Source: Naegleria gruberi (Eukaryota). From it: DNA of 64,000 bases. Position 1 is the stretch's first letter. Every line of letters starts with the position of its first letter. A model generated the notes under the pieces. The model saw nothing but the letters and a program-made list of their open reading frames with translations. It was not told where the DNA came from and did no database searches. The position numbers and the translations under genes were made by a program. Positions 1 through 58,384 of this stretch are shown in pieces. Location: NCBI GenBank assembly GCA_000004985.1, contig GG738866.1. The stretch is one strand, 5' to 3'.

Positions 1-1455
1 ATCTGTTGGTCTGTTACCAAATCCGCTATAGAATGGGAAATCTGTTGGGAATAAACTAGCAATTGAACCAAGGCAATTAATTTTGAATGTTTCAGGTCTT
101 CTAATAACAACTTCTCTTGCCAGAGCACTAAATGCCTTGTTGGGCGATGTAATGATTGGACCAGGTGGCATTTTATACCCATCTTGGTAGACAGAGTTGA
201 TATATTCTCGAGTTAATTGTGACATTGTAATTGGTCTGGCACTAAGGTAAATAAATTTGTAATTATTTTCAGCTATCGATTGAAATAATTTGGCAATTCC
301 TGGATGAGTGTAGTCTTTACCCATTCTACTGTACACTTGACCCATAATATCTGATTTGGTGATAGTTCCATCAATATCACTAATAATTATCTTATCTTGT
401 GGTGAAAATTCGAAAATGTAAGCCTTGACAGGTTCTAGCCCACCATTTGGATCAATAAATGAAATGGAAGAGCGACCATCAGTCATATGTGAATGAATTA
501 ATTCTAAATATTCTTTAGATGGACGAAGTCTATGTTCTGGGTGAGTTTCTTGATCAATGGATTTAAGCCATTTATCCATATAGCCAACTTTTGATGGAGA
601 TCCAGCTGTATAATAACCTGATTCTTCCTCAGCTGTTGGAGTCATTGTTCTAGATTTTCTAGGATTACTACCAGCTCTTGGTCTTTGGAAAACAGCTCCT
701 GTTCTTGATCTAGACCTTGAAGTGGATGTTTCCTCTTCAACCATTCTTTGAATTTCCTTTTCTTCATCATCCGGATCTTCTCCTTCCTGTTCCATTTCTT
801 TTATCATTTCTCGTTCTTCTCTTCTTAATTCTTCATTTTCTTCTGGTGAAGTAGCCAACATGCTTGCTCTATTTTCAGTTTTGATTATTAAATTTTGTGG
901 AAGAGTTTTCTTTGGAAGAGGAGGAAGATCTTTTGGAGACATTGAAGAAGGGCTTGTAGGATTATTCTGTGACTTGTCATCTTCGTATAATAGATCACTT
1001 GGTGGTTTTTGAATTTCATTCGTTTTTTTAGGAAGAGGAGGTAAAGATTTTTTCCTGTATTGTGCTATCATGGTTGCTGTCTCATCTGATTGGACAACAC
1101 TTGCTACAGTCTTATTATTTCCAACAATAATTCCTGATGGAGAAGGAGGAGGAACAGATGATGTTTGTGAATCATTGACTTGTGGATTATCACGAGTTTC
1201 AACACTGAAATATGCATAATTGTGGTCAGGATCGACAATAAGTTCACATCCAGGACAGCTAATTTTCTTTCCATTAACTTGAACAGTGATGACTCTTCTT
1301 ATCTTACTTCTTTGTGGAAAACGAATAAAGAAAGGTGATGATTGGAATGAACCATCATCTTGTTTGACAAGTACAACACTATATAATTAAATACATTCCG
1401 TTATTATTATTAAAATCATCAACCGATATAAACACACTTACTCTACAGCAGCCAT
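1..1455 (-). CDS. Lipin/Pah1-type phosphatidate phosphatase. The gene is partial: its 3' end runs off the left edge of the window. A 14-nt first exon (1442..1455, ATGGCTGCTGTAGA) is separated by a 63-nt intron (1379..1441) from the main exon (1..1378).
   Basis: The minus-strand translation gives the N-LIP motif VDVVLVKQDDGSFQSSPFFIRF. It also gives the C-LIP/HAD motif IIISDIDGTITKSD...YLSARP...GFGNRPTD, which is the DxDxT catalytic signature of lipins. The intron has a GTAAGT donor and TATAG acceptor, and splicing restores the frame (GA+T). Confidence 0.75.
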
Positions 1456-2128
1456 TGTGTTTTTCTGCTCCGAAAATAATATTATTATTTACAATTAATA
1501 ACGTAAAATGTACAAATAGTTAGTCTATTAACTATCCAATGTGTTTTTAATTATACTCCACTACTATAATTCCAATTTGGCACAATAGATCTTCTCACCA
1601 ATATCACTACGATATAGACGACTAAATATTGGCTTCAAACAACAGAATTGAAAATATGATACAATGATCGAACAAGGATCGAACTTGGTGTTGTTGTTGG
1701 CTTATTTTTTCAAAGCTTGTAATTTTTTGAAAGTTGTTTATGAAAATTATTGCGGCAATAAATGGCTTGTTTTGTTGATGGATTATTATTGTTATTTGAA
1801 AGGGAAAGGAAAGACGGTTTTTGGTTGGCAAGCTTTAAAGGGGATGATATTTTCGTTTGGAATTGAGAATCGTTTAGTAACCACCACCTAGCACGTTGTT
1901 GATTAGAGTGTTGGTCACTCAATGTACTTTCTGATAGAAGGAATAGCTATCCAATTAGCAAGTAAGGATAAATTGAATATCGGTTTCTTTATTTTGGAAT
2001 GGTCACTAACGGATAAGGAATTAGGCATCCCATTCATCATATTCATGTTCAACATCCAAAATTACTTGAAATAATCATCTTCTTTCTTCATTACAAATCA
2101 TTTTTTGGTCAACTCTTTACAATTATGA

Positions 2129-3369
2129 TTACAATTGTGTAATTGTGTTTCTTGGAAGGACAGAGATGGAGGGATAATGTGGTGGTGAAAGGGATTGAGG
2201 GATATAGGCAATCTGAGGTGTTGGATGTTGCTCAATTCTCTTTCTCGAAGATCGTCCCAAAAGTGCAGGCAAAATTGATCCAAAGAATGTATTAGAAAAT
2301 CTCCAACTAAAAATCATGAATAAGAAATATTTGAATATTCTCCTAAAGTCGATTCCATCCAAATCTAGAGAATGAACTACAATTACTTCACCTGTGGCTA
2401 ATACAGGAGACGAAGCCAATCTCTCCAGAGGATCCTTCAACGCATTGGAAGCTGCTTTACCAGCATCAGCTCCAAATCTTTCAATCCATGCAAGTGGAGA
2501 GGTTTTAGGTTTTCGTTCCTTTCTTTCCTTCTTTTCTATTTTGGCTCTTCTGATTGTGAAGATTCTGAATTCTTTTTAGAAGAGAACAGACTAGAAGAAA
2601 ATATTGTGGAAAGGATTGATGGTTCTGCTGCAGCTTTCTTTTCTTCTGAACTATTATTGGAATTTTCATTGCTTGGTGATTGTTGTTCACTGGATTGTGA
2701 GCTAGGGGTTTTTTCCTCAATTGTTGCTTTCTCGCTCGATTTCTTTTCTTGTTGCTCTGCAGCACTTCTTTTTGATGAACCTCCAACCATCCAAGAAAAA
2801 GGTGAAAATATTGTATCAATAATTGATGATTGCTCATTCTTTCCACTATCTCTTCGTTCCTTCTTTTCCTTCTTTGGTTTTTCAATAGTTGATTTTTCAC
2901 TTTTTTCTATTGTTGGCTTGACCGAAAACCTCTCAGATCCTATAGAATCTCCTATTTCATTCTTTCCAATAACCAGAGTATCTCTCGGAGGAGATAAATG
3001 TTCATTCGATACATCTTCATACTCTATTACTTTTCCATTCCTAATTGATTTCATCAAATCCTGAGACTTTTTAATATAATCCACATCCTCATCGTTATCA
3101 TTATTATGTACATATAAATTCTTCATATATTCTCCAACATGTTTATTATCGGATATTGATTTTTTATCCTCCAAATTATCTTCCGAATATTTATCATCAA
3201 TGTTAGTCGCCTTCTTCTCTTCTTCCTCCATGACTGAAGAAACCTCATTCCGACTGATGAGAACGGAATTTAATAGGAATGGTGAGTCAATGAGCGTTGA
3301 GAAGGATGGTGTGAGAATAGCACGATTTGCTTGTTGTTGCTGGTGAGTGGAATCGTTAGTTTCAGACAT
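2129..3369 (-). CDS. Ser/Glu/Lys-rich low-complexity protein. It carries repeated short amphipathic F/W motifs (TIFSPFSWMVGG, STIFSSSLFSS, PLAWIERFGADAGK, NTFFGSILPALLG). The reading frame shifts near 2530.
   Basis: The 277-aa ORF (2536..3369) and the 103-aa ORF (2129..2440) continue the same repeat motif but lie in different frames. No canonical intron can be drawn between them. The break falls in a T5/A5 homopolymer. Confidence 0.4.
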
Positions 3370-3520
3370 TTTTTTTAATTTGTTTTTAAAATAATAACAA
3401 TGTTATCGAATTTTTGTAAACTCTCGAATTGTTTATTGGAATTTTATCGAATTGATAAGATTCTTAATAACCTCACATGATTTTGACTATATTGTCTCAA
3501 AAATTTTGGTCTTGCTTTTT

Positions 3521-4126
3521 TTAACAAACACCATATCCACCACAACCACCACCATATCCATATCCTGCACCATAACCATAACCACCTCCATAACCACCTC
3601 CATAACCACCATAATATGGAACAGCTCCATAACCATAACCACCTCCGTAACCACCATAGTATGGGACACCATAACCTCCGTAACCACCATAATATGGAGC
3701 AGGGTAGTAACTACTGTAAGCATTATTATTACCATAGCTAGTTGGTCCAACGTAATTGCTTCCATAGCTTGAGTATGGATTTGAGCTAACTGCATTAATT
3801 TGATTACTGTAAGCTTGAGTATTTTGAGCATATTGATTGTAATTTCCTCCAGCAACTCCATAATTTTGACCAGCACCACCATTGTAACCATAATTGTTAC
3901 CATAATTATTGGAAGAAGCACCACCACCATATCCACCATAGTATGGAATTGGAGCTACTGGTGGAACAGCATAACCATAACCACCTCCATAACCACCACC
4001 ACCACCATAGTAACCACCACCAGAAGTACTTGCAGAATCCTTCTTTTCCTTGTCATCAGATGCATGAACTGCAACTGTTGCAATGAGAAGTGTTGCAATT
4101 GTAAATACAATGAATTGTTTAATCAT
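3521..4126 (-). CDS. Secreted Gly/Tyr-rich repeat protein. It has an N-terminal signal peptide followed by GGYGGGYGYG and YYGGYGG repeats.
   Basis: The 201-aa ORF begins with a hydrophobic leader, MIKQFIVFTIATLLIATVAVHA, followed by degenerate G-G-Y repeats. The opposite-strand ORFs in this stretch are mirror artefacts of the repeat. Confidence 0.6.
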   Translation of the reverse strand: MIKQFIVFTIATLLIATVAVHASDDKEKKDSASTSGGGYYGGGGGYGGGYGYAVPPVAPIPYYGGYGGGASSNNYGNNYGYNGGAGQNYGVAGGNYNQYAQNTQAYSNQINAVSSNPYSSYGSNYVGPTSYGNNNAYSSYYPAPYYGGYGGYGVPYYGGYGGGYGYGAVPYYGGYGGGYGGGYGYGAGYGYGGGCGGYGVC

Positions 4127-4293
4127 ATTTTTTTGAATTGTTGATTCGAATAGTGATGGAAATCGTGGACTTTTATAGTGTTGGAAAGGTTATGGTGAGT
4201 AAACATTGAAGGACAATGAACAAATCTCTATTTGGAAAGTTTGTTGATTATCGATTATTACTTTTATACTACATTCTCCAAAAAAGGTTTCGT

Positions 4294-5077
4294 TTAAAAA
4301 TGCACAATTACTACAGAAACATTGTCTTTCGTTTTCTTTTCTAAGGCAGTTTGACAAAAATCGAAAGCAATTTCTTGGGAAGTTCTTGCCTTTTCAAATT
4401 TTAGTTCTTTGAACAAGTTTTCAACATTTTCATTGGTCAACTTGTCGAATAAACCATCACATGCTATTAAAACACTTCCATGCTTTCCAGAAATATCAAT
4501 GAATCTAATTTCAGGAGTGGATATAATTACATCAACCTCTAAATTTGGTTTGTTCAAAGTTGTCTTTACAGCTGGTTGTTTGTATTGAAAATCTCCAAAC
4601 TATTGTTGATGATTAAGAATTTGATTAAGAGTAATCGAGAATAGAACTTACAGTTCTAGAAGGGAGTGTATTCACAACCTTAACTCCAATTTGTTGCATT
4701 CTTTCCTTTTCATAATGAGCTTTGTGATCTCTTGACATGACTGTGCATTCACATTGATTATTACTTTCACCAACAAATACCAAAGCTCTGCAATCTCCCA
4801 AATTTGCACAATAAACTGACTCACTGGTAAGAAAACAAACATTTGCAGCAGCTCCACAACTTGGTTTGATCTTTGAAAACTTTTGCTTTTCAATAAAGAG
4901 TTTTAAATTCAAGTCAACTTGTTCAAATGCTCGGATAAGAGCTTGTTCAATTGTATCCGATTCTTTTAATTTTTCTTTTAAAATTGATTCCAAATTACGA
5001 GAAACATATTCAGCAACTTCAATTCCTCCATGCCCATCAATTACGCCAAATAACCCACCACAATAATCATTGTGCAC
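4294..5077 (-). CDS. PP2C-family Ser/Thr phosphatase. Two exons (4652..5077 and 4294..4599) are joined across a 52-nt intron (4600..4651). The 5' exon carrying PP2C motif 1 was not found.
   Basis: PP2C motifs are present: GLFGVIDGHGG (motif 2), and SRT|FGDFQYK rebuilt across the intron (GTAAGT...CAATAG, phase 0). The C-terminal part reads VLIACDGLFDKL. Confidence 0.75.
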
Positions 5078-5269
5078 ATTTTTTTGTTTTTAAATTGTTC
5101 AATGTTCTCTGTTAAAGAGGACATTCCACCAAAGAACAGTCAAAAGTAAGAGAACAATGAAATCTTGGACATTGTGAAGAAAACATGATAGTTTAATGAT
5201 GAGGGCCTGTATGATGGGAGCTACTTCAAGCTACCAAAATCAGTCCAAAGTAGAGTACAAAATTATTGA

Positions 5270-7367
5270 CTATTGTTGATTGATTTCATGTTGAACTTCA
5301 TATGTGGCATATTGTAATGCCTTATCGGTTTGTGAAATGGCTGCCAAAACAATTGGCAAGTCACCTCTCAAAGTTTTAGAAGCAAAATAGAGTGTCATGC
5401 CATCCCTTTGAACAGCTATCTCTATTAATTGGTTTGAATTGAAAAAATAACTTACCATTTAAAACAACTTCTCTATCATGTCTGAAATGATCTGGTACAA
5501 ACTCGAGAGCTTTTGGATTAAGCTCGATCATATCTAATATGAATTGTTTTTGGGATTTAATTGACTCGGGAGTATACTTCAATGATCTGGCATCTTGAAA
5601 GACAGCTGCTGAAATGACAGTGAGATCTCTTTTAAGGGTTGGTGTGGCATATTGGATAGCTGTTCCCTTTTGATTTACAGCTAAAAATACCGTGTCGACA
5701 TCGTCCTTCAAAGCATCAGATGCATATTTTAGACAAATGCCTTTAACATTCAATACTTTTGCCATGAATTCTTTGTTTGCTCTTAGTTCTACTCCTGCAA
5801 ATTGAAGAGCATTCTCAAACACATCACCACAAGTTGTTGCTGCAAGATATGCCAATATTGGGTTCTTCTTCAAAGTAGTACTTGCATATTGAAGAGCCAT
5901 TGGTCTGTTACGAATGGCCAATTCCACAATATCAAACTCATCTCTCAGTCTTTGAGAAATATGTTGCAATAGGAAACCATTTTGTTTTACAGCAGCCTTA
6001 GCAATATTTACATTGTCTTTGAGTGCAGCAGAGCATTCATGAAATGCTGAAGAATTATTTTGAATAGCACAAAGGGCAACCTCTTCATCATCCTTCAATG
6101 TATCATTGGCATATCTAAACAAGCTACCGTTCTGAGTTACCATAGCTTTGACTATTGTTTTAAAGTTACAACTACTTGGAATCTCTCTGTATGTATGGAA
6201 TGAATATGGAAGACTTTCTCTCTGTAAAATGGAACCAATGTTGTAGTGAACATGATAAAAGTGTTTCTTCTTCATCTGAATCCAATTCTTAAAATTTACA
6301 ATCTCACTATGTTTTGTATGTTTAAACCAGAGAGAGCCATTCTGTTTACACAAGTGTATGAGTGTTGAGCCATCTGAAGTTTCACCAATCTTGACTTGTT
6401 CACCTTCATCTCTCCATTCACTAATAGGTAGCAACATGTTTGAAACGTGAAGGAATTTGTTATGCCAACTTGCTCTTCCATCACTCAATTCTATGAGAAA
6501 GGTCTTTAAATGATATGGAAGAATAACTTGAAATTTTCTTTCGAGTTGTGTAATGAGTATTGGACTGACAGTGTCTTCGTTCAATGGTTTGAGAAGGCAA
6601 GAGTTTTCCAAATTCCATAGTCTGAACAAGTCTCTCTTCTCCACTTGCAAACAAGCTCTGTGAAAATCAATGCTCACCCACTCTGCAATCTTTCTCGAAG
6701 AATCTTCCATGAAATTGAATATAATTTCAATAATATCACTTGGTAAATGACAGGATGGAACACAAGCTTGTGGGCTTTCTGGTGATTCGATAATTGATGG
6801 AGCACACGAAGTAGATGTTGAATTAATCTCTAAATATTTTGTATGGATATTTTGATGTGAGCATGTTTGATTGTCTGCATGGTGTTTAATTCTCTTCTTT
6901 GTCATTGGGAAGCAACTATCAGGAAGCTTGCTATCGAGAGGAGTTATCAAATCATATTCCTTCTGACTATGGTCCAAATCATCCTCATGATGAGTTAATA
7001 ATTCAGAATTGTGTTGTTCATCATCATAAACCTCTGAACATAATAGATTAACTTGAAAACCAGCTGATGCTCTTATTCTCTTCTTTACCTGTTGATGAGA
7101 ACGATTGGGGAAAGGAATAATCACTTCGGGTCCTCTTTCATGATCCTTACGGCAATCCGTGAGTGTTAATGCTGTTGAATGATCATCATCTTTAATTGTA
7201 TCAGTGTACTCTTCTTGTTGGTCAATGATTCTTCTTCCCACCAACAAACCGTGATGCTGCTTCCGTGCTGGTTGTGATGAAGCAGATGCTGTTGTTGTGG
7301 AGCCTCTGACAACATTCAAAGAATTGTATGGATTGTTTGTGGACATTTTATTGGAGTCAATTTTCAA
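5270..7367 (-). CDS. Protein with an F-box-like N-terminal region and tandem DUF4116-type repeats (LxYAS..LKxDxxxVxxAV.QNG.ALQYA). A 34-nt intron lies at 5422..5455.
   Basis: The 663-aa ORF contains about eight repeats of the form ALKDDVDTVFLAVNQKGTAIQYATPTLKRD. The next ORF (5270..5458) continues the repeat, and the join is in frame with a GTAAGT donor and TAATAG acceptor (phase 1, giving ...VVLNG-E-IAVQRDG...). Confidence 0.55.
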
Positions 7368-7715
7368 TAATTACCTCTTGGTTTTTATTGCTTCGTTCAA
7401 AGAATAATGGAGTGCTTTGTAAACCAATAAATTGGTACACGGTGTTGTTGTGATGGTGTGGATGGTGGTAATCTGGTAATGAGTGGTTCCTTTATAATGA
7501 TGATGAATTGTTCAATATGGCACACCTATCAGCTACAAAAGGAAGGTATGAGAGTTTGAAAAGGCGCCAATAAAATTACACAAATCAATATTTACGCTTA
7601 AAGACTGTAGTTGATGTATTGAATCGTGAAAAATCATGCAGTGGTAGGCTCATTATTGTATTTAATGTTAAATACATAAATGAAAATGGTAATAGTATTT
7701 ACAAAATGGAATTTA

Positions 7716-8603
7716 TTAAAAAACAATTTGTGCTCTTATTTGATCTAAAACTGAAAGAATGGCTTGAATTTTCACAATTTGCATCTTTCTTTGGTTTCTA
7801 ATCCAATTACTTTCTTTGAATTCAATCGAGTCCAGTTCAATTGTTAAATTCATTAATTCACCATCAAATCTTGTAAGTTGTTTCAGTATTTGATTAGAAT
7901 CAACTACTACTGTTGATGATTTGTTATTTTCTCTATCAGAAACAAATTGATCGACTCGTGACAAAACATTTTCAATTTTGGTTGCAATATCGAACACCTT
8001 CACTCCATCATCTCCACCAAATCTTTCTTTCATTTTCTTAAGACGAATACTTTCCTTTTCAATATCTTCTGTTGGTAATTCATATCTACAAGTTGGACAG
8101 GTATTATGTTCATTCAACCATGTACTCACACAATCTTTATGGAAAACGTGACCACAAGGAAGTCTTATCAGTTCATCACATTCTTCAAAATCACAAATGC
8201 AAACAGCACATGATTGGTCACAGTGTTCACCACATTGTGTCATAATTTGTTTTCGGAGAGGTGACAATTTGTAAGTAGGTAATGATTCTAAAGCATTCTT
8301 TTTCGTTGGTGCCTTCTTATTGATTTGATCCTGTTGATATTGTTGGAAGGATTGATTGGCAAAATCTGACATGTTTACATTATCGAACAGATTGGAGAAC
8401 GGAACATTATTCGAATATTGCATATCATTTGGTGAGAAGAACATTGTTAATGGCACACCATAGAAACAAAATTGTTGGTTTGTTTCTGGTTGCTGACGAT
8501 GGTGATTACCATCTTGGATAAAAATTGGTAAATTGAATAGAATGTTAAACATTTTCTTTTGTAATATATTTGATCGCTTATTCACAACACCGCTTGTTGT
8601 CAA
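7716..8603 (-). CDS. RING-H2 E3 ubiquitin ligase of the RNF126/BCA2 type.
   Basis: It carries the C3H2C3 RING-H2 signature CAVCICDFEECDELIRLPCGHVFHKDCVSTWLNEHNTCPTCR. The upstream PTYKL...L motif is typical of RNF115/RNF126. Confidence 0.7.
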   Translation of the reverse strand: MTTSGVVNKRSNILQKKMFNILFNLPIFIQDGNHHRQQPETNQQFCFYGVPLTMFFSPNDMQYSNNVPFSNLFDNVNMSDFANQSFQQYQQDQINKKAPTKKNALESLPTYKLSPLRKQIMTQCGEHCDQSCAVCICDFEECDELIRLPCGHVFHKDCVSTWLNEHNTCPTCRYELPTEDIEKESIRLKKMKERFGGDDGVKVFDIATKIENVLSRVDQFVSDRENNKSSTVVVDSNQILKQLTRFDGELMNLTIELDSIEFKESNWIRNQRKMQIVKIQAILSVLDQIRAQIVF

Positions 8604-9020
8604 TATTAAGATATTAAGACTTTTTTTTCAAGTTGGTTTTTCTTGTTTGTGTTTCGAATGGTCATTTTTAACGTTTTGAAAAATGCGACAAACTATTTTT
8701 ATGCGCAAAGGATTTTCCTCAGCTCTCGGAATGTGAAGGAAAATCAACTTCCGAACCTCAGATTCCGAAACTTTTATTAAATTGAAGTCAATGGTCTTTT
8801 ACGCTCACTAACAGTAAAGGACTGTAAAGTTGAATTTGGTTTCTTCTGAGATTATTCAAGAATATTGAGAAACGAAACCTTTTAGAAGGAAAAGCAAGGA
8901 GATAATTGTATTATGGATTGTTCTACAATGCTTTCAGAGAGAGATTGTTATTGGAATTGTTTTGGAATTAAAGATGTTGGAAACCTTACTCAATATCCTA
9001 AGAAAATCAGCTCCATAAGT

Positions 9021-9466
9021 TTACAAAAAGTTTGAGGTGGAATTGTTGAGGTTTTCGAGAACTCGTTTGTAGGTCTTGGCAGCTTTTTGATATCCCATAT
9101 TGGCAGCTTTTTCGAATACTTTAATGGCCTCCATTTGATTTATATCTAAAAAGTAGCCACCTTGATAAAGACAAGCCAGTATATAAATGAAAACAGGAGA
9201 ATTAGGATTGAATTGACATTGTGCAACGAGAGGTTTCAAAATAGTAAAGGCCAAATCGTCGTATTTTTCTTTCCATGCTAACTTGCCGGTCTTGTAATAT
9301 GCAAAAGGTATTAAAAAGTTTCCAGTGCATGATTGCTTGTAGTGATAGCTCTGAATACATTCTTCTCATATCCATTTCTTCCCTTCTCATAATAATACCC
9401 CTCAATATAGGAGATGTAATATTGAGCATCTTGATAGGTTTTGCCAGTTTTTGAGAAACACTCCAT
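9021..9466 (-). CDS. Sel1/TPR-like repeat protein. A +1 frameshift sits in a T5 run near 9268, so this is either a pseudogene or an assembly indel.
   Basis: Two frames read MECFSKTGKTYQDAQYYISYIEGYYYEKGRNGYEKNVFRAITTSNHALETF and FAYYKTGKLAWKEKYDDLAFTILKPLVAQ...KAANMGYQKAAKTY. Both are Sel1-like (A..Y..G.G...D). They join exactly if one T is removed from the TTTTT run. Confidence 0.4.
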
Positions 9467-9929
9467 TGCTTAACAGTTTAAATAAACCTATGCTTTTTCT
9501 CTCTATAAGATCACTATTTCTCTTAGTGTTTTATATCGTTTCCTCAATGCCCTGAAAAAGAATTTTCAATGAAAATTTACTGTTTGTTTCCAAGTTACAA
9601 ATTCTGTGGTTTAAGAATGAAATCTTTGAATCTCTCCTTTCGAATATTTGGTTGAGGTTTTGGACATTTGATAATGGATGGTGATTAATTCTGGTTCATT
9701 GTCTTGAGCTGTTTGAATGTCAAATTACCAATCACCAATTCAGTCTTCAATGATGAGATGGAGAATCTGAAATGATTTAGACAGGATTGTTTGCTAATTA
9801 ACCAATAAATTATGATCAAATTGAACTCAGTGGTACTGTAATAGTGAAAGGACTGCAAAGTTTCGTAAATATTGGGGTCATTCTAGAGTTCACGTTGTAT
9901 TATTTGTGAACAATTTGAATAGTGAGAAA

Positions 9930-10747
9930 CTAATCCTCATCTGGGCCTTTAACATCAGCAGTCCAATTACTCAAATTATCCCTCAATAATTGCAATATTA
10001 ACGTTATCTCACTTGAAATGTCCTCACCAGATTCGATCAAAATCTCAAGTTCTTTCATAGCTTTTGAAAATGCTGTTTGTGCAATTTCCACAGCTTTTTC
10101 ACACTCCCCTACAACCTCATATTTAAACACTGCCTGAGACAAAATCATTCCTAATCTAAGGGGATTCAGAATACTCAATTTAGTGGAAAATTCATTTGAT
10201 ATTTCATAACATTCCAATGATTTTCCCTTCCAATCCAGTCCAGAATTTTGATAATCAACTCGTGCAATATTTCTGTACAAGTCTCCTTTTTGTTTCCAAT
10301 AATAAACACAATCTTCTACTGATTGATCTTCCAATTGTAGAATTTTATCTATTATTTCAATAATTTCAACTGTAATTTCAATACATTTTTCTTGTAAATT
10401 TTTCATAAATCGTTCAGTCAACTTGACATTATGAAATTCATTCTTTGTTTCTAGTCTATCTCTTATTGACAATACAACATGATGAGGAGTTGTATAACAA
10501 GCAATTACATTCTTATAGGCTACCAACAACAGGTTCCTCTCTTCATCAGTCGGTCGTGGTTGACTAGAGTTGAGAATTTGTAAAATCAAACTCTTTATTT
10601 CCACCATCATTTCTGCAAATAATATATTACTAATAGATCTTTGGTAAACTTGTACTCACCCTCATAAAGTTCCGTTTGTTCTAGAAATTTAATAACGAAT
10701 AATTGATCGGAACGATAGTTAGTGTCAAGTGTTTGTTTTTGTGCCAT
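9930..10747 (-). CDS. 14-3-3 protein. Exon 1 is 10660..10747 and exon 2 is 9930..10612, separated by a 47-nt intron (10613..10659).
   Basis: Signature 14-3-3 motifs are present: EERNLLLVAYKNVI, YYWKQKGDLYRNIA, NPLRLGMILSQAVFKYEV and LILQLLRDNLSNWT. Splicing exon 1 (MAQKQ...DQLFVIKFLEQTELYE) to exon 2 (EMMVEIKSL) reproduces the conserved N-terminus. The intron reads GTGAGT...TTTGCAG and is phase 1. Confidence 0.85.
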
Positions 10748-10936
10748 TTTTTTGTAAAGTATCCAACATTTGACTTGCTGTTCATTCCTTTGCGTGAGTA
10801 AGAAAGCAGGATATGCTTTTCTGCCATAGAATTTAAAAAGCTGACCGTTATATTGTTGGCGCCACTTTTACATTCCCGCCTTTTAAAATCGTTGTTTTGT
10901 TATTGAAAAAATATTTTATCAAAACACATCAAAGAA
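10748..10936. promoter_or_regulatory. Bidirectional promoter shared by the 14-3-3 gene (minus strand) and the Aurora kinase gene (plus strand). It contains the palindromic TTGGCGCCA (E2F-like) element at 10858..10863.
   Basis: This is a 189-bp head-to-head spacer. GGCGCC is rare in this roughly 32% GC DNA. Confidence 0.45.
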
Positions 10937-12378
10937 ATGCAACCACACCAATCCTCTTCTCCATCCTCTACCAACACGATGAACAAGGAGAATGAACATT
11001 TTCACTTTCCAACCATGCCTTCCAAGACGCGATCATCTAAAACATCATCACCAACCAACAGCAATACATCACCAACCTCTCAACAAGCCAAACTAAAATC
11101 TGGTCAAAAAGTTTTTCCTTTCCATGTGGCTTATGGTATTTCCCCATCACCATCATTATCAACATCATCAAATACACAAAAACCAAGTGGTATTCCTAAA
11201 GTTGTGCACAATAAGAAGATTTTCAGCACTCCAAGCTCTGCTAAAAGTACCCAAAGAAAAGCTCTGGGCACTTTGAGTAATCAAAAATCTAATCAACTCT
11301 CCAATCTGCAAAATATGCATGCCAACATTACCATTACTCCACCAGAAAAGTTTACTCCTCATCCACCATCACAACCAAGAATTGTTGAAGAAACAAATGA
11401 AATGGTTGATGACGTAGCTGTTGATTCACATACTGTTACTAAGGAAGTTCCAGATGCTGAAATGAAGACTACAGAGTCAACCACTGAACAAACTCAATCT
11501 ACTACAACACAGGAATCATCAACTGGGGCTAAGAAATCTACATGGAAACTCCAAGATTTTGAAATTGGAAACTATCTTGGAAAGGGTAAATTTGGACAAG
11601 TATACCTTGCAAGAGAAAAGAGAACAAAATATATTGTAGCATTAAAGGTTCTAGATAAAGAACAATTAAAGAGAGAAGGTGTAGAACATCAAATCAGAAG
11701 AGAAATTGAAATTCAATCCCATCTCAGACACAAGAACATTTTGAGATTATATGGCTATTTCTATGATAGGCAAAAGGTATATTTGATTTTGGAATACGCA
11801 GCTGGAGGTGAATTATACAAACAATTACAAGAATGTAAACGTTTTTCTGAACCAGAAGCAGCTAGATACATTACAGGACTTGCCAAAGCTCTCAAATATT
11901 GTCATGACAGAAATGTCATTCACCGTGATAGTAAGTTTTCAATATTTCCAAGCAAAACAATTAACAAATACTAGTCAAACCTGAGAATTTATTGATGGAC
12001 TCAAATCATGATGTAAAAATTGCTGATTTTGGTTGGAGTGTTCATGCACCAACCACAAGAAGAACAACACTTTGTGGAACTTTGGATTATTTACCTCCTG
12101 AAATGGTTGAAGGAAGAGAACATGATTCAACAGTTGACTTGTGGTGTTTGGGAGTATTGTGTTATGAATTCTTAGTTGGTGAACCACCATTCATGGCTCC
12201 AACACAAGAAGAAACATTTAAGAAAATTAAGGATGTTGATTTACGATTCCCACCTTTCGTTTCTATTGATGCTCAAGATTTAATCAGTAGATTACTTGTC
12301 AAGGATACTTTGCAAAGAATGTCATTGACAGAATTATTTGAACATCCGTGGATTGTTAATAATTGCCCCGCCCAATAA
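10937..12378 (+). CDS. Aurora-family Ser/Thr kinase. Exons are 10937..11930 and 11975..12378, with a 44-nt intron (11931..11974).
   Basis: The kinase domain reads [14 protein letters not shown]...HRD|IKPENLL...DFGWSVH...[10 protein letters not shown], rebuilt across a GTAAGT...ACTAG intron (phase 1). The activation loop and C-terminal region are Aurora-like. The N-terminus is an S/T/P-rich extension. Confidence 0.85.
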
Positions 12379-12420
12379 ATTGTTTTTCTTTTTAATTAAA
12401 TTATTAATAATTTAAAAAAA

Positions 12421-13789
12421 ATGACCACTAGCAAACAGTTTACGTTGCCATCAACGCCTTCTCTGGCATATTTTGAGTGCCTTCTTGATTCTTTTCCGGA
12501 TGCAATTTTGAATACTATTGTGGATATAACAAAAGGAACAGATTCCAATTTTGATCAATACGAATCTGAAAAATATGTTGTGGTTAACAGAATTATTAAA
12601 CACTCCGTTAGAGCTGGTAGGTTTACAAAAAACTAATAATTTTAATGTGATTTTAGGATTTCGTATTTTTTCCCACTCTCTTGATAACGAAATGCTAAAC
12701 ACACTAATCCATATTTATAGACCATATCTAGAATCACGACATTCCAAAGCACAATTGGAATCAAGATATTTGATATTTAAGAAAGAAATAGTTTCAGATA
12801 TTTGGTGTCTGTTAGGTTTTGATAGATTTCTTCAAAATTTACCAATAGAAATAATTCACAAATTGTGTGAAGCTTTTGGATTTACTGAGGATGTAAATGA
12901 TAAAGAAAGTTTAGAGCTAGCACTTAAAGAGGAGATATTGATTATCGGATTTTGCGAAATTATTCGCAAACAAGAGTTAAAAATTCTTAATGCAGCTCTC
13001 ACATCTGTTAGAGAAAATTTTAAATCATTATTTGATCAATATCCATTTTTTGAGGATTCGTATTGTGTTTCAGATTATTTTGATGAGCAAGCGTATGCTT
13101 TATTCTTTCTTTCATTCAGTTTTCCTCATATAAGAAAGGAATTTATTGATTATATTCAAAACTCTGAGCAAATACTGAAAAAGCTTAATAATAGATCATT
13201 GAAGAAAATTCAAGCCCTCTCATTTACCAATGGTCAATCAGAAGAATTGGTAACATCATCTGAAAAGGATGTCCTTCAATTACTTGCAAAAAATCACACA
13301 AAGCAAGACAAAAATACAGAGAAGGGTGTCAAGGAAGAAAAAAATACAAAGAAAGAGAAAAATGATAAGAAACAAGAAAAATCAGCGGAGAAGCATGAAA
13401 AAGAAAAGAAAGTCAATAATATTAGTGAGCCATCTGTGTCAACTATCCCAACTAAAACCTCCAACAGAAACGATAGTAAACCTTTTGCCTCACCTAATGA
13501 AAAGAGTTCAGACGAGGATTCAGAAGAAACCTCAAACGAACCAACCTTTCCATCAAGTAAAGGAAGGGTTAAAATTGAAAAGGGTGTAACAGCAACTGAA
13601 ATTTACACCAACTATTCAGCCAAAGAGATTTATGATATTTGTAAACTATTGAAAATCAAACTTGCAGGTAACAGTACTGAGCGAACAAGACGAATTGTTA
13701 AATTCCTAAATGATGGAATAGTAGAAGCTAAACGTAAGAGAAAACGCAGTGCATCCTCCAAATATGCATCCTCCAAAAAATCAAAATAA
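12421..13789 (+). CDS. Lys/Glu-rich nuclear protein with a C-terminal SAP/DEK-C-like helix-loop-helix. Exons are 12421..12616 and 12657..13789, with a 40-nt intron (12617..12656).
   Basis: The intron reads GTAGGT...TTTTAG (phase 1) and joins ...HSVRAG to FRIFSHSLDNEML. The C-terminus reads ATEIYTNYSAKEIYDICKLLKIKLAGNSTERTRRIVKFL, followed by a KRKRKR tail. Assigning this to a domain family is tentative. Confidence 0.45.
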
Positions 13790-13830
13790 ATTATTAACAC
13801 TCCAAATTGATTTACCAACTTTACAAAAAA

Positions 13831-15273
13831 ATGTTAAAACGCCCTGCAGCATCAATTCTAAATTTGAAACGAAGCTTTATCTTCAAATCCCTACCAGCAC
13901 TTCACTACTCAATTACGAATTTTAAAATGAACTTGCAAATATCAAATCCCAACTTGAACCAATTCATTTCCGAAGAGGTTCCTTCAAGTTCATGCTTACT
14001 AGCCAGTGATCTTCACACGAAGCAGCATAATATTAATGATAATAATTTTATTATAAATACAACAACAGCAGAGAGTGATGAACTTCCGAATATTCTTTCA
14101 AAATTAAAAAAAATGAAACAATTGATATTTTTGGGTACAAGTTCTGGTGTGCCAACACCTTTGAGAAATGTCAGCAGTTGTGGTTTGCAATTGGATAACG
14201 GAGAAGTTTATTTGATTGATTCCGGAGAAGGAACACAACAGCAATTACAAGTATGTTTATAATTTATTGATCATGATGCTAATTGATTGCTATACCAATA
14301 TATGAAAAGTATTTTGAAATCTGGTAAAATTACAAGAATATTCATTACCCATTTGCATGGTGATCACTGTTATGGATTGCCTGGACTTTTGTGTACATTA
14401 TCCGGAAATAATCCTGTAACTAGAACTATTCTTCCGATTGTTGGACCTGTTGGATTGAAGAATTTCCTTCGTCAAACACTTTCATTGAGTGATGCCCATT
14501 TGAATTTCAGATTGGATATTCATGAAATTGTTCCACCAGAAATGACAGAAGAACAAGTTAAAAAGTATGATGAACAATGCATTGCTCCACTTGCTTGTGA
14601 ATATGATAGTGAAAATTGTTCAGAACCACCAAAGAGTGCAGGATCTTTTATTTATTTGAATAAGGAAACAAATTCTTACCCAGTTTTTGATTTGACTCAA
14701 ACTGATGCTGGATTGACTGTTCAAGCTGCACCAATTTTGCATCGAGTTTTCTGTGTTGGGTATGTGTTTACTGAAAATGACAAACCTGGTAAATTGGACA
14801 TGGAAAAGTGTAAACAACTTGGAGTTCCTAAAGGACCAATGCTTGGAAAAATTAAGAATGGCCAAACAATTACTTTGGATAATGGAACTGTTATCAAACC
14901 AGAAGACGTTGTTGGACCAACTATTAAGGGTAAAAAGTTAGTAATGCTTGGAGATACTCATAATCCTGAAGGAATTGCCACAATTGCTAGGGATTGCACT
15001 CTTTTGGTTCACGAAAGTACCTTGGAGGATAACATGAAAGAACTTGCAATTGATCGTGGACATTCTGTACCGTCAATGGCTGCTAATTTTGCGATCTCAA
15101 TCAATGCAGCTCGTTTAATTCTTACCCATTTCTCTGCTCGTTACGTTGACGAAAACAAACCAGAAAGTGAATTACACGAAAACGAAGTATCAGTCTCTCT
15201 CTTGAGAAAGCAAGCTCAACAAGTATTTGCCAATGTAGAGTTGGCTTCTGATTTTGCTGTCTTTACCATTTAA
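13831..15273 (+). CDS. Short-form RNase Z (ELAC1-type tRNA 3' endonuclease). The exon junction near 14251..14312 does not close in phase.
   Basis: The first part reads [13 protein letters not shown]...[14 protein letters not shown], and the second reads [28 protein letters not shown] (HxHxDH). Aligning to ELAC1 gives [19 protein letters not shown]. The likely start is the ATG at 13831 after an A-rich context, since the ORF track used a TTG start at 13807. Confidence 0.7.
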
Positions 15274-15351
15274 AGAATCTAAAATAAAATTAATTTATTC
15301 ACAAGTTTCATTTCTTTATTTACAATATTTACACTTAGTTGAACTTAATGC

Positions 15352-16048
15352 TTAGAGAGTTTTGGCCAAATACAAACTCCAGAAGAAACCAATAATGTTG
15401 AAGAAGAGTACAACAAGGTCTGGAGGGCTAGAACTCAAAACAACAATAGTAGCAAGTGGCCAAAGCATATAACCTGATTTCAAAGTGGTATAGAAATCAC
15501 GTTTCAAGTTGGCCAAAGCCTTATCTACCACAAAAGCTCTTGATTCAACAAAGGCCAAAACAACAATATAAAAAGCATTGATGAATGGAGCATAAACAGC
15601 TTGATCAATTAAGGTAGGAACCAATGCAAACTTTTCAATGGTTGGGTTGCAAACGATTGGTCTCAACGATTTGATTTCCTTCAAATAATCCATAATATTA
15701 TCCAAAAAACCATACCAAAAGTGAGAACAAGCAGAGCTGCATCCTCCTGTAATTGTAAAATTAATAACTGAATTCCAATCAATTTCTGTCTTTTTCTTGA
15801 TAAACTTTTGGCTTACAATATTAGCAATAAAAGTAATAAGAGCAGCTGTAATTGATTTAACTGCGACTGGTGGGTACTTTTCCATTAACATTTTGTAAAA
15901 ATTCAATATTTTCTTTAATTGATCGGCAAGAGAGTTTGACTTTCTACGAGAAGGATCACCTTTAATAATATTAATTCGGGTTCTCTTTTCTTCTCCTTTA
16001 CCCTCTGATTTAATATCAATAACATCCGTTTGATCGTCTTGACTCATT
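15352..16048 (-). CDS. Mpv17/PMP22-family membrane protein (peroxisomal or mitochondrial inner-membrane type).
   Basis: It is about 230 aa with four predicted TM segments. The match to Mpv17/PMP22 is spread along the protein, including YLKEIKSLRPIV, AVYAPFINAFY, GFFWSLYLA and MLWPLATIVVL. The likely start is MSQDDQ after an A-rich context. Confidence 0.65.
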
Positions 16049-16163
16049 TTTTTATTATTAATTTTTAAATAAAAAACCAAAGTACTAGAAGGCGCCAATA
16101 CGTAATTTCCTTACTAGAAGGTTTTGATTTTCAAACATTTTGACAAGTTGAGTACCTACCTTC

Positions 16164-17723: not shown

Positions 17724-18896
17724 ATGATTAAACGGAAGTGTTTGAAGGAGGAGGCTAGCATTGTTTGGAACGAGAGAATAGAAGAAAGAAGATTGCAAAT
17801 ATTGAAAAAACGATTATTGTTGAAGGAACAAATTTTGGAGGAAATTAGAGAAAGTGGGGATGAGGAATTGGAAATGTCGGGAAGTAAAAAGAAAAAGCCT
17901 TTGGAAAAAACTATCACAAAGTTTGTTAAAAAGCATAGACTTTTGCCTTTGATGCAAGAGGAGTATTTACTTCCGAATGATGAATTTACTTGTGAAACTG
18001 ATGACCAAATGCTACGATTAGTATTTGATAAGAATAACTGGAATGAAAATGACTGGTATTTGTTGTATAGGCCACAAGGGAGGAGAGTATTGGTAATATC
18101 TAACAATATGTATACATTTGTTGTGGAAATGAAAGCTAAAGAGAATAATTTATTTATCAAAAAATATCTTTCAGTTTTACAAAGTATTGGAGGAAAACGT
18201 CAGTCTTTTACAATATTAGATGCTATTTTATACGAAACTAATGAAGAGAAGAAGCTTTATATACTTGATCTAATTGCTTGGAATGGGCATTATTTTAGCT
18301 CTAACCCAGCCGAGTTTAGATTTTATTGGCTCACCCAAAAATGGAGGGAGGATCTCAACGACAATATGTACACTAAAGATCAGATAGATATGGAGCTTTG
18401 TGAAAGGATTTCCCTCAACGAATTTTTTGCCAATGTTGACAAATACCATCCAAATTATGAAACAGATGGTCTATATCTTTATCATAAGGAAGGGGATTAC
18501 GTTCATGAGACCTCTCCTTTCTTATTAGTATTTAGAACTTTTAATAATTGCACGTATTTGAAAGAGTTAATGCAATCAGGAATATTCACATTCAAAATGA
18601 TGTATGAAAAGCATGATTCACTGGCAAGTATTAAAATTGGCCAATTAGAAGTTAAGGTTGGAGTTTTACCTCATATTGAAACTAAATCTGTTGTAAAAGT
18701 TAAATTAAGGCTAAAACAAAATGTTATGGTAGATGATGATATTCAATCGGATAATTTTGAAATTATTTCTATTGAAGAGGATCCACTTTTTAAAATAATT
18801 GGAAAAGGAGAAGGGGAAAGCTATTGTGATACTTTTGGAAAAGTGCTTTTTTACTTATCTATTCAAAATTTACAAAATGATGCAATGATACTTTAA
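17724..18896 (+). CDS. Snurportin-1-like m3G-cap snRNP import adaptor.
   Basis: The N-terminus resembles an IBB domain, with basic and acidic residues (RRLQILKKRLLLKEQ). Cap-binding domain blocks are present: FTILDAILYE...LYILDLIAWNGHYF, FRFYWLTQKW and ETDGLYLYHKEGDY. Confidence 0.7.
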   Translation: MIKRKCLKEEASIVWNERIEERRLQILKKRLLLKEQILEEIRESGDEELEMSGSKKKKPLEKTITKFVKKHRLLPLMQEEYLLPNDEFTCETDDQMLRLVFDKNNWNENDWYLLYRPQGRRVLVISNNMYTFVVEMKAKENNLFIKKYLSVLQSIGGKRQSFTILDAILYETNEEKKLYILDLIAWNGHYFSSNPAEFRFYWLTQKWREDLNDNMYTKDQIDMELCERISLNEFFANVDKYHPNYETDGLYLYHKEGDYVHETSPFLLVFRTFNNCTYLKELMQSGIFTFKMMYEKHDSLASIKIGQLEVKVGVLPHIETKSVVKVKLRLKQNVMVDDDIQSDNFEIISIEEDPLFKIIGKGEGESYCDTFGKVLFYLSIQNLQNDAMIL

Positions 18897-29871: not shown

Positions 29872-29885
29872 AATGTTAAAATTCT

Positions 29886-30817
29886 TTAATTAGTTGTGGT
29901 TGGTGTCTTTTCAGCTTCATCATCAATTGAGTTGAAGGTATTTGATGTTTCAGAATTATGAACCAAGAAAGTACGAGCATTACGGAAAGTACTACCATCC
30001 TTGATGGAAAGCTTATTGTGCTTATATTGAACAATAACACCTTCTCCAAAGTGCAAAATCCACTTGAAACGGTCACAAATGTGAATTCTATCAGCATGAT
30101 TGTTTGAATTCTTGTTCCAGACTTGTAAAACGTCTTCCTTAGTTCTCAAACTCAAAACACAACCAACAACATTACCAGTTTCTATTTAAGGAAGGGTGAT
30201 GAATTAAAATGAATATGAGTAACAATACATACCAAATTGTTCACAAATAGTAGAGAAAACGAGTTGTTCCCACAATCTATCACAGAAAGTTGATGTTTGA
30301 CCATTTTCACCCTTTCTAATTTTGACCATCCAACATCCACCTAATTATTATTAAATTATTATTATTAAATTTTTAATAAACGTAATGCGGAAATGTATAC
30401 AAACCTTGAGGGAAACTATTTAAAATTAATAATTAAATATAATTAAATACATACGATTCCCACATTGGTACTACTTCATGTCTGAACAATGAAATATTAC
30501 TATTCTTTGGCAATTTGCTTGGCTTTTGGAGGTAAGAATAAACTTTGCAGAATTCATCAATTGATGAAACGGTGGCAAGTTTAGTCAAACAATCACGGTA
30601 TTGACTTCCATCCTTTTCCTTTTCATGATGTTCTTGATGATGATGTCCTTCTTTATCTACTTTAGTATTAGCATACCAAAAAGTCCATTTAGTTTCAAGT
30701 GGAAATCCTTTAGCTTTTAATTGTTCATCGCTATCATATGATTGAGACTTGGTCTTTTTAGCTGGTTGAGGAACTTCAAAAACAGTCTCGGAAACAACTT
30801 CTTGTTGAGATGTAGAC
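29886..30817 (-). CDS. Translation initiation factor eIF4E. Exons are 30465..30817, a possible 11-nt micro-exon at 30405..30415, 30233..30340 and 29886..30181.
   Basis: Conserved blocks are KGFPLETKWTFWYAN (cap-binding Trp residues), HEVVPMWE, GGCWMVKIRKG, RLWEQLVFSTICEQF and GNVVGCVLSLRTKEDVLQVWNKN...DRIHICDRF. Introns start GTATGT, and the last is 51 nt (30182..30232). A His-rich insert (KEGHHHQEHHEKEKDG) is present. Confidence 0.75.
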
Positions 30818-35144: not shown

Positions 35145-35242
35145 ATTATCTCATTCAATGTATTTCAATTCTTATTTTGCTTCACCTTCAAATATTTAAA
35201 TATTTTAATTTATTAAATTAAAAAAATTAAAAATACAAAAAA

Positions 35243-36037: not shown

Positions 36038-36041
36038 TTTA

Positions 36042-42989: not shown

Positions 42990-43096
42990 TTTTTTCTAAA
43001 ATTAAACCACATTCAACAGATCAAAAGTGAAATAGTGAGGTTTGTACAAAATGGATTTTATGATACAGTTTATTGAGTTTTAAAAAGAGATAGTAT

Positions 43097-58263: not shown

Positions 58264-58384
58264 TTTTTTCCTTAATGATAAAAATATGAGAAAATGTAAC
58301 CGACAATTTTTTAAAATGAGCACACGTTGAAATTACAGTGAAAATAAAGTGAAATCTTATCTTACTATTATAATGTGTGAATCA

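Follow-up and report, generated by a model that had tools for sequence, protein, structure and literature searches.

The closest described parallels to the arrangement reported here are the dual-use stop codons of compact protist genomes (Giardia, Spironucleus and Naegleria gruberi; Genome Res 2024, PMC11529991). Nanopore direct-RNA sequencing of N. gruberi identified AAUAAA as the poly(A) signal, with a U-rich element 3′ of it and a median 3′UTR of 39 nt; about 11–13% of stop codons overlap the hexamer, and the median 3′UTR of those genes is 22 nt (PMC11529991). A second parallel comes from the compacted genomes of the microsporidia Antonospora and Encephalitozoon and of nucleomorphs, for which overlapping transcription has been described (Williams et al. 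2005; Corradi et al. 2008; both cited in PMC3629993). Spliced-leader (SL) operons, known from kinetoplastids, euglenids and diplonemids as well as from nematodes and Oikopleura, also bring same-strand genes together across very short spacers. Euglenozoa, in which trans-spliced polycistrons occur, are the sister group of Heterolobosea, and they carry long same-strand clusters, whereas Heterolobosea do not: a comparative study found no polycistronic genome architecture in the latter, with about two genes per same-strand run, intra-run spacers that are not shortened and a spacer ratio near 1 (bioRxiv 10.64898/2026.07.29.740908). Finally, polycistronic mRNAs with closely spaced same-strand ORFs have been reported in green algae (PNAS 2021, PMC7896298).

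Here we analyze an array of three plus-strand genes in N. gruberi (contig GG738866.1), encoding an Aurora kinase, a SAP-like protein and an RNase Z, within a 64-kb window, by which we mean the whole stretch of DNA analyzed. The first-pass annotation had described these genes as operon-like on account of the 42-nt and 41-nt spacers between them, and both spacers have exactly the coordinates that it gave. The features of the array are as follows.

10858–10880, plus strand: two GC boxes (GGCGCC at 10858–10863 and CCCGCC at 10875–10880) in the divergent promoter region (189 nt) that precedes Aurora, at positions −79 and −62 relative to its ATG
10937–12378, plus strand: Aurora kinase gene, exon 1 10937–11930 and exon 2 11975–12378; 465 aa
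11931–11974, plus strand: Aurora intron, 44 nt, GT..AG
12365–12373, plus strand: GC box GCCCCGCCC with its CCCGCC core at 12367–12372, within the last codons of Aurora (Cys-Pro-Ala); candidate promoter element of the SAP-like gene
12374–12379, plus strand: AATAAA poly(A) signal over the Aurora TAA, a dual-use stop codon
12379–12420, plus strand: spacer 1, 42 nt, 5% GC, no AG, final letters AAAAAAAA before the ATG
12380–12393, plus strand: U-rich tract TTGTTTTTCTTTTT, directly 3′ of the Aurora poly(A) signal
12421–13789, plus strand: SAP-like gene NAEGRDRAFT_67308, re-modelled, exon 1 12421–12616 and exon 2 12657–13789; 442 aa
12617–12656, plus strand: intron of the SAP-like gene, 40 nt, GTAGGT..TTTTAG
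13785–13790, plus strand: AATAAA over the TAA that ends the SAP-like gene; this further dual-use stop is absent from the first-pass annotation
13790–13830, plus strand: spacer 2, 41 nt, 22% GC, no AG, final letters ACAAAAAA before the ATG
13831–14112, plus strand: in-frame N-terminal extension of RNase Z, N. gruberi-specific, 94 codons; coding status uncertain
14113–15273, plus strand: conserved core of the ELAC1-type RNase Z, exon to 14250, intron 14251–14304, exon 14305–15273
15283–15288, plus strand: AATAAA, 9 nt beyond the stop codon of RNase Z; a convergent gene follows at a distance of 78 nt

Judged from the sequence, these are probably three Pol II genes of an ordinary kind, each transcribed on its own, whose units abut or overlap in the compact N. 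gruberi genome. The three genes would be squeezed together because both ends of their mRNAs are very short, with dual-use stops at one end and short leaders at the other. No tandem spacer of the window is shorter than spacers 1 and 2; all the others span 98–369 nt. The further small tandem spacers pointed out in the first-pass annotation were recovered as described, at 98 nt (35145–35242), 107 nt (42990–43096), 116 nt (16048–16163) and 121 nt (58264–58384), and a 46-nt tandem spacer is annotated in Willaertia magna. Convergent pairs in the window, both partners of which have full-length Pfam matches, have stop-to-stop distances of −4, 0, 4, 14, 28, 39 and 78 nt, and extreme 3′ packing is thus the rule in the window. 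Divergent start-to-start spacers run from 186 to 664 nt, the smallest (186–189 nt) corresponding to about 93 nt per gene. Both spacers of the array are AT-rich and lead into an A-rich context (AAAAA-ATG at both downstream starts), as had been noted before; A occupies each of positions −5 to −1 in 21–25 of the 27 other starts in the window.

At 42 and 41 nt, the spacers fall below the usual sum of promoter, 5′UTR and 3′UTR (about 93 nt per gene in divergent pairs; median 3′UTR 22–39 nt), just as intergenic DNA in microsporidia and nucleomorphs is too short for a full promoter and terminator, and convergent stops overlap or abut in the N. gruberi window as well. In those genomes, according to PMC3629993, transcription is expected to begin inside upstream genes or to end inside downstream ones, and the same is predicted here; multi-gene transcripts have been seen in microsporidian spores, whereas the mature mRNAs predicted for the N. 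gruberi locus are monocistronic. Unlike the microsporidia, N. gruberi is free-living and has introns and a well-defined AAUAAA signal. Its genome is about 41 Mb.

The identity of Aurora and the reality of spacer 1 are well supported. The first gene has a Pkinase match at E 9e-74 (Pfam), the best-matching solved structures are without exception Aurora A (E 5e-121), and it is 99.8% identical in an independent assembly (L071). The second gene encodes a protein with a probable C-terminal SAP-like domain. Its own Pfam match to SAP_new25 (19.7 bits) is below the cut-off of 26.3; a two-sequence profile of the family matches proteins that carry SAP or SAP_new25 above threshold in the matched region. 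The NCBI model of this gene (XP_002677553) starts at an internal Met at 12692; the public model of NAEGRDRAFT_67308 is thus without its first exon, which is a practical point for annotation. Exon 1 (12421–12616) has a homologue in N. fowleri (tblastn E 3e-9) with the same intron position and is also homologous in a metagenomic relative (protein P0002). Because this homology is joined by the same 42 nt, base for base, in the independent assembly L071, spacer 1 is robust, and on this evidence we regard it as a solid case of a real inter-gene distance. Spacer 2 is likewise identical base for base in an independent assembly (L002). Exact-protein look-ups matched only genomic contigs of one ENA metagenome (L002, L003, L071 and L072), and the assemblies that reproduce both spacers derive from a near-identical strain, whose 99.8% identity leaves too little divergence to reveal constraint on the spacer.

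The 3′ ends of the two upstream genes resemble those published for this same species. The Aurora stop (TAA, 12376–12378) is embedded in AATAAA, as the first-pass annotation had stated, and so is the stop of the SAP-like gene (TAA, 13787–13789); spacer 1 in addition has the U-rich tract downstream of its signal. That annotation had held 41–42 nt to be too little for a terminator, which is half right, given the published median 3′UTR of 39 nt and of 22 nt where AAUAAA overlaps the stop (PMC11529991). The Aurora and SAP-like transcripts would each end through the AAUAAA over their own UAA, with cleavage predicted about 20 nt downstream, near 12400 and 13811, within the spacers. The published account covers 3′ ends only (PMC11529991); here two such stops stand 41–42 nt before the next start codon, with cleavage sites that are predicted, and the 3′-end module thus abuts the start region of the next gene. 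Dual-use stops account for 6 of the 32 stops in the window. In our own tally of the window they occur at 7 of 17 tight gene ends compared with 2 of 15 loose ends, so that a link with a close downstream neighbour is suggestive only.

Transcription of each downstream gene would start in or just before the final 20–40 nt, where A/T-rich sequence passes into AAAAA-ATG, and the leader would not exceed a few tens of nucleotides. Since the promoter need of roughly 90 nt exceeds 42 nt, it seems that part of the promoter must overlap the upstream gene. The first-pass annotation had offered promoters embedded in upstream 3′ coding regions as an alternative to polycistronic transcription, and for the Aurora and SAP-like pair this is the version that we favor: promoter elements of the downstream gene would lie within the upstream 3′ coding end, and the candidate for the SAP-like gene is the CCCGCC box in rare codons at the end of Aurora, at a distance typical of promoters in the window (54–56 nt upstream of the SAP-like ATG). 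Runs of six or more G/C bases number only 19 in the window, and against shuffled sequence there are 4 copies of CCCGCC (1.0 expected), 3 of GGCGCC (0.33 expected) and 6 of GCGCCA (1.55 expected). Nearly all GC-box copies in the window lie 35–260 nt upstream of start codons, and all four CCCGCC copies are in sense orientation upstream of an ATG. These statistics describe one 64-kb window with about 30 start codons, some of them called by means of the A-run itself. Orthologues of the SAP-like gene have comparable elements, GCGCCA at −28 within the 86-nt spacer of N. fowleri and GGCGCGC at −37 in a metagenomic relative (L001).

The codons that spell the box in Aurora are unusual. The box reads TGC CCC GCC, which has a joint codon probability of 0.00125 given Cys-Pro-Ala; CCC makes up 3.7% of Pro codons, and CCCGCC is used in none of the 13 other Pro-Ala pairs. 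This raises the possibility of dual coding in the last codons of Aurora, where rare codons would be retained for the promoter box that they form for the gene downstream. We put this forward tentatively, as a suggestion with a little less than an even chance of being right; it is more likely than transcription of the array as a bi- or tricistronic precursor. The GC boxes may resemble E2F sites. A literature search for E2F in Naegleria found no explicit statement, so this resemblance stays a lead. Polymerase that passes the Aurora poly(A) site would probably cross the next promoter before terminating, which makes nascent read-through, and perhaps an mRNA overlap of a few nucleotides, likely; mature mRNAs would nonetheless be monocistronic.

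Other candidate signals were tried and set aside. The word TTTACAAAA was considered as a start-site motif (12 copies against 4.85 expected), but its copies are scattered over introns and coding DNA. K-mer enrichment upstream of starts is dominated by the A-run and by TTAAAAA-like words and did not locate start sites, and a literature search on Naegleria transcription start sites, 5′UTR lengths and promoter architecture returned nothing usable. When JGI metagenome contigs were scanned for the 17-mer TTGCCCCGCCCAATAAA, 64 loci came up, none resembling the window beyond the seed, and these are thus chance matches.

Among the alternatives to three separate genes 41–42 nt apart, the one that survives best concerns spacer 2 and leaves spacer 1 unaffected. 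The third gene is a short-form ELAC1-type RNase Z, and the 41-nt distance is conditional on the 94-codon extension that begins at its first in-frame ATG, 13831; the first-pass pairing of a 42-nt with a 41-nt spacer thus stands for spacer 1, and for spacer 2 only if the extension is counted. Otherwise RNase Z would start at ATG 14113, and positions 13790–14112 would be a 323-nt promoter and leader that is open in frame by chance, making the short spacer partly an artefact of annotation. The orthologues in N. fowleri and Willaertia begin at the equivalent conserved Met, and the extension is absent from them and from most other homologues. The context of ATG 14113 (AAAAAAA-ATG) is perfect, with an A-run as good as that at 13831, and 323 nt is close to the 286-nt upstream region that RNase Z has to itself in N. 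fowleri. The extension scores 0.045 per codon, where the 5th percentile of true coding windows is 0.125, and all three SNPs within it relative to a 99% identical strain are non-synonymous, whereas those in the core are synonymous.

Against this, given the stop frequency of intergenic DNA, 94 codons would stay open by chance with a probability of only about 8e-4, and the frame of the extension outscores the other two by a wide margin and exceeds all off-frame windows. ATG 13831 has a consensus context, and an identical 16-mer is found at another predicted start in the window. A metagenomic relative (P0006) has an N-terminal extension too, its start coming from an automatic gene call. The extension is basic, and its first 47 amino acids include no acidic residue, features reminiscent of a mitochondrial presequence, which it may be. 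Weighing these points, we consider the later start a serious contender, somewhat more apt to be wrong than right. In terms of separately transcribed genes, the 41-nt spacing would apply only to a long RNase Z isoform made from 13831, possibly mitochondrial, and the conserved RNase Z can come from ATG 14113, 323 nt past the upstream stop.

In contrast, a true polycistronic unit fares poorly. The first-pass annotation had suggested that the array is transcribed polycistronically, perhaps with trans-splicing or internal processing, and a common strand, spacers of 41–42 nt, a pyrimidine tract in spacer 1 and the practice of the sister group Euglenozoa would all fit a single Aurora/SAP-like/RNase Z primary transcript cut by polyadenylation-coupled SL trans-splicing or another endonucleolytic step. 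However, there are zero AG dinucleotides in 12379–12420 and in 13790–13830, and hence no trans-splice acceptor between cistrons. The nearest AGs lie 89 and 81 nt upstream of the downstream ATGs, inside the upstream coding sequences (47 and 40 nt before the upstream stops), so splicing there would leave the upstream mRNA truncated. Both upstream genes come with an AAUAAA of their own at the stop. No tRNA or Rfam family was found in the spacers, the sole Rfam match at gathering score in the 64-kb window being a tRNA-His at 61238, and no RNA structure in them rose above shuffled controls. The array is of three genes only, unlike a long same-strand cluster; two runs of about eight same-strand genes do occur in the window, and every gene in them has a spacer of at least 100 nt. 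The short same-strand runs of Heterolobosea, with no intra-run shortening, argue in the same direction (bioRxiv 10.64898/2026.07.29.740908), and the SL trans-splicing literature that we found names Naegleria only as a comparison species.

Gene order in relatives likewise speaks against a polycistronic unit. In N. fowleri the Aurora and SAP-like genes are in tandem, 86 nt apart, but a FAD-binding gene on the opposite strand stands before RNase Z and splits the trio. The upstream neighbour of RNase Z in Willaertia is an Exo_endo_phos gene, and PAC2 lies upstream of the SAP-like gene in the metagenomic relative. As read from these assemblies, the order of the trio is not conserved among relatives. 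Taken with the missing acceptors and the separate poly(A) signals, this makes a polycistronic unit, whether cut by SL trans-splicing or by another endonucleolytic step, an extremely improbable account of the array.

The weakest reading of all, with hardly any probability, is that the mature mRNAs are stable bi- or tricistronic molecules on which leaky scanning or reinitiation gives access to the downstream ORFs, as reported for green algae and some fungi. The ORFs do lie close together, as they do in green-algal pairs, but the algal ORFs are small and their translation hinges on a weak start context of the upstream ORF (PMC7896298), whereas here the upstream ORFs have 465 and 442 codons, a strong A-rich start context and 30 (Aurora) and 18 (SAP-like) ATG triplets, which exclude leaky scanning, AAUAAA overlies both upstream stops, and no IRES-suggestive structure exceeds shuffled controls. 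More generally, the sequence evidence makes even partial transcription of the array into a single bi- or tricistronic precursor very unlikely. Such a precursor, if true, would represent incipient polycistronic expression without SL acceptors in a free-living, intron-bearing sister lineage of Euglenozoa.

The reading of three separately transcribed genes carries a caution for annotation, in that same-strand spacers of 40 nt in Naegleria would be no sign of an operon and would follow from dual-use stops combined with very short leaders. The locus would also offer a compact test case for a Pol II promoter and a 3′-end signal fitted into the same stretch of about 60 nt, with the candidate promoter box lying in rare codons of a conserved kinase gene. 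In addition, the A of the RNase Z intron acceptor (within 14295–14310) is missing from the reference sequence, a possible splice-site defect that, like the ambiguity of the start codon of this gene, is a practical point for annotation.

The Aurora kinase/SAP-like/RNase Z array is very probably not an operon, and its tight spacing is most readily accounted for by monocistronic units that abut or slightly overlap. In the mechanism that we infer, a dual-use stop/poly(A) signal would end the upstream transcript, the downstream gene would have a very short leader, and its promoter elements would lie within the upstream coding sequence. Between Aurora and SAP-like the tight spacing is real; between SAP-like and RNase Z it is conditional.

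Gene models built from the sequence
10937-11930 and 11975-12378, plus strand: Aurora kinase (gene 1)
12421-12616 and 12657-13789, plus strand: SAP-like gene (gene 2)
13831 (or 14113)-14250 and 14305-15273, plus strand: RNase Z (gene 3)

Gene 1 has a Pkinase match (E 9e-74) and only Aurora A entries among its top solved structures (E 5e-121); gene 3 is an RNase Z of the short, ELAC1-type form. The gene 2 protein is 100% identical to XP_002677553 (NAEGRDRAFT_67308, "predicted protein [Naegleria gruberi]"), and thus the window is N. gruberi nuclear DNA. Its family is very small (5 representatives with E ≤ 1e-10 among 1.84 billion proteins), with a conserved C-terminal domain whose profile reaches genuine SAP/SAP_new25 proteins. 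GC content is 29-36% across most of the window and 24.5% in the final 2 kb, and introns are short and GT..AG.

The spacers measured in the first-pass annotation stand: 42 nt for Aurora/SAP-like (spacer 1, 12379-12420; 5% GC), 41 nt for SAP-like/RNase Z (spacer 2, 13790-13830; 22% GC, read from the sequence), and 98, 107, 116 and 121 nt for other tandem pairs. So does the A-rich pre-ATG context, with both spacers finishing in the A-run typical of the window's start codons (A at each position from -5 to -1 in 21-25 of 27 other starts). Both spacers recur exactly in two contigs of an independent ENA metagenome assembly (L071 and L002; 99-99.8% identical strain), and the spacing is therefore not an assembly artefact.

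How short the spacers are depends on the downstream start codons. For spacer 1 the start is firm. The public 365-aa model XP_002677553 begins at an internal Met (ATG 12692), which would make the spacer 313 nt; this model omits exon 1 (12421-12616) and the beginning of exon 2 (region concerned, 12421-12691). Homology shows exon 1 to be real: residues 12-66 align with the N. fowleri orthologue (E 3e-9), whose intron has the same position, and a metagenomic protein, 31% identical, spans 98% of the re-modelled protein, N-terminus included. The homologous region has no possible start ahead of it other than ATG 12421.

Spacer 2 is conditional, hinging on a 94-codon extension begun by ATG 13831. This extension is absent from N. 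fowleri, Willaertia and most other RNase Z homologues, which begin at a conserved M-x-x-(L/I)-T-F-L-G-T-S-S-G corresponding to ATG 14113, itself in a perfect A-run context. Its coding score is weak (0.045 per codon versus 0.125, the 5th percentile of true coding sequence), nonetheless above every off-frame window, and each of its three SNPs relative to the other strain is non-synonymous. What speaks for the extension is that a run of 94 open codons would arise by chance with a probability of ~8e-4. The extension is basic, with no acidic residue over 47 residues, and appears presequence-like by composition. The start context of ATG 13831 includes a 16-mer identical to one at another predicted start in the window. 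On balance, we put the use of ATG 13831 at slightly better than even. If it is unused, RNase Z lies 323 nt from the SAP-like gene, resembling the 286-nt upstream region in N. fowleri. The 16-mer, ACTTTACAAAAAAATG, occurs at 10745-10760 (minus) and 13818-13833 (plus), where none is expected by chance; the sites are the predicted starts of the gene divergent from Aurora and of the long RNase Z form. Separately, the RNase Z intron (14251-14309 region) ends ...ATATATG/AAAAGT in the window, with no AG acceptor; it ends ...ATATATAG/AAAAGT in L002 and L003 (environmental, near-identical strains) and ...TTAG/AAAAGT in N. fowleri. At this acceptor the reference carries a one-base error or else a defective allele. 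Among the RNase Z homologues recovered, none was an NCBI protein from N. gruberi.

Packing is tight throughout the window and tightest at 3' ends. Convergent stop-to-stop distances are -4, 0, 4, 14, 28, 39 and 78 nt, including the snurportin/KAP pair (-4 nt, stops overlapping) and the Isy1/kinase pair (4 nt); in the convergent partners tested, Pfam matches extend to the protein ends. The snurportin/KAP stops have TTAA in common, and a second pair forms TTATAA.

Convergent overlapping or abutting stops, from the window sequence
18893-18896, convergent: stops
41916-41921, convergent: stops
36035-36044, convergent: stops
29869-29888, convergent: stops

With stops that overlap or abut, the 3'UTRs must run antisense into the neighbour's coding region. 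Divergent start-to-start spacers are 186, 189, 290, 361, 391 and 664 nt, and tandem spacers 42, 41 (or 323), 98, 107, 116, 121, 151, 167 and 313-369 nt. If the needs of the two ends are simply added up, with 0-40 nt for a 3' end and about 90 nt for promoter and leader together, the total agrees with the 98-121 nt tandem cluster. Spacers of 41-42 nt fall below it, and some overlap with the upstream gene is therefore unavoidable. Packing of this kind is already known for the N. gruberi genome, as for other compact eukaryotes: a 46-nt tandem spacer is annotated in Willaertia, and overlapping transcripts occur in microsporidia and nucleomorphs (work cited in PMC3629993).

At the 3' side, nanopore direct-RNA sequencing of N. 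gruberi identified AAUAAA as the poly(A) signal, followed by a U-rich element, with a median 3'UTR of 39 nt; in the dual-use class, ~11-13% of stops, the codon itself overlaps AAUAAA and the median 3'UTR is 22 nt (Genome Res 2024, PMC11529991). The Aurora and SAP-like genes have exactly that arrangement. As originally noted, the Aurora stop (TAA 12376-12378) is embedded in AATAAA (12374-12379), with TTGTTTTTCTTTTT directly downstream; the SAP-like stop (13787-13789) is likewise within AATAAA (13785-13790). Dual-use stops account for 6 of 32 in the window, and in N. fowleri Aurora AATAAA lies 3 nt ahead of the stop. Predicted cleavage, at ~12400 (Aurora) and ~13811 (SAP-like), would fall roughly 20 nt short of the following ATG.

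At the 5' side, the suggestion that promoters are embedded in the upstream gene's 3' coding region gains support for gene 2 from a GC box. Runs of at least 6 G/C bases are uncommon, with 19 in the whole 64 kb, and three motifs are several-fold over-represented in the window, almost only 35-260 nt upstream of starts: CCCGCC (4 copies versus 1.0 expected), GGCGCC (3 versus 0.33) and GCGCCA (6 versus 1.55), nearly all copies of the latter two being in promoter-proximal DNA.

GC boxes GGCGCC/CCCGCC/GCGCCA, from motif counts
7563, 10858, 10875, 12367, 16091, 20848, 21061 and 54656; CCCGCC in sense orientation: GC boxes

Each of the four CCCGCC copies precedes a start codon in sense orientation, the positions being -62 (Aurora), -54 (gene 2), -48 and -258. 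The sole copy within a coding region (12367-12372), that at -54 from the gene 2 ATG, lies in Aurora's non-conserved tail and encodes Cys-Pro-Ala in rare codons, TGC CCC GCC (choice probability 0.00125; CCC is 3.7% of Pro codons); CCCGCC is used in none of 13 other Pro-Ala pairs. A GC box also precedes the ATG of the gene 2 orthologues in N. fowleri and the metagenomic relative, at a distance of 28-37 nt and within longer spacers. The boxes have a possible resemblance to E2F sites. These observations support an own promoter for gene 2, with an upstream element overlapping Aurora's coding end.

The first-pass annotation had favored polycistronic transcription, perhaps with trans-splicing. The spacers give that proposal no support. 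Both lack AG; going upstream from the two ATGs, the first AGs are reached at 89 and 81 nt, ahead of the upstream stop codons, so no trans-splice acceptor could part the cistrons without truncating the upstream mRNA. A search in and near the spacers found no tRNA or Rfam family, and they fold with the same energy as shuffles (z -0.3 and +0.3). The three-gene array is not conserved among N. fowleri, Willaertia and the metagenomic relative: the N. fowleri order is PAC2, Aurora, (86 nt) SAP-like, an opposite-strand FAD-binding gene and RNase Z, and neighbours in the other two differ from the window's. In Heterolobosea, same-strand runs contain ~2 genes, with spacers not shortened within them (Discoba comparison, bioRxiv 10.64898/2026.07.29.740908). 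Leaky scanning to a downstream ORF of a bicistronic mRNA is implausible given 30 ATG triplets in the Aurora mRNA and 18 in gene 2, with strong start contexts in both; green-algal polycistrons, unlike this locus, have small upstream ORFs (PMC7896298). An Aurora/SAP-like read-through fusion is excluded by in-frame stops in spacer 1.

Several further features were observed. The N. fowleri FAD_binding_3 monooxygenase gene between SAP-like and RNase Z (N. fowleri contig L004, 8117-9714) is absent from the window, implying that it was gained, lost or moved in one lineage. Within 10611-10747 (minus), the gene divergent from Aurora has a short exon 1 starting at ATG 10747 (MAQKQTLDTNYR...) and an intron that ends TTTGCAG at ~10613. 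Both would be overlooked if the first ATG in the ORF (10610) were called as the start; including them reduces the divergent spacer to 189 nt. Two runs of ~8 consecutive minus-strand genes (1-10747 and 46816-62121) are longer than random orientation usually gives, with spacers of at least 100 nt for each gene. The first ATG of a large kinase gene (36042-39479, minus) lacks an A-run; its ORF is open to 39578, 20 nt from an upstream ORF's stop at 39598. A small intron may link the two ORFs into a single gene; alternatively, the start is perhaps mis-called (region 39480-39597, minus). A 276-aa ORF (34314-35144, plus) with no Pfam match begins with the histone H3 tail sequence MARTKQTARK; it may mimic the H3 tail or reflect a mis-joined model. 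The window's only Rfam or ARAGORN hit is a tRNA-His (GTG) at 61238-61309 (plus), between two minus-strand protein genes.
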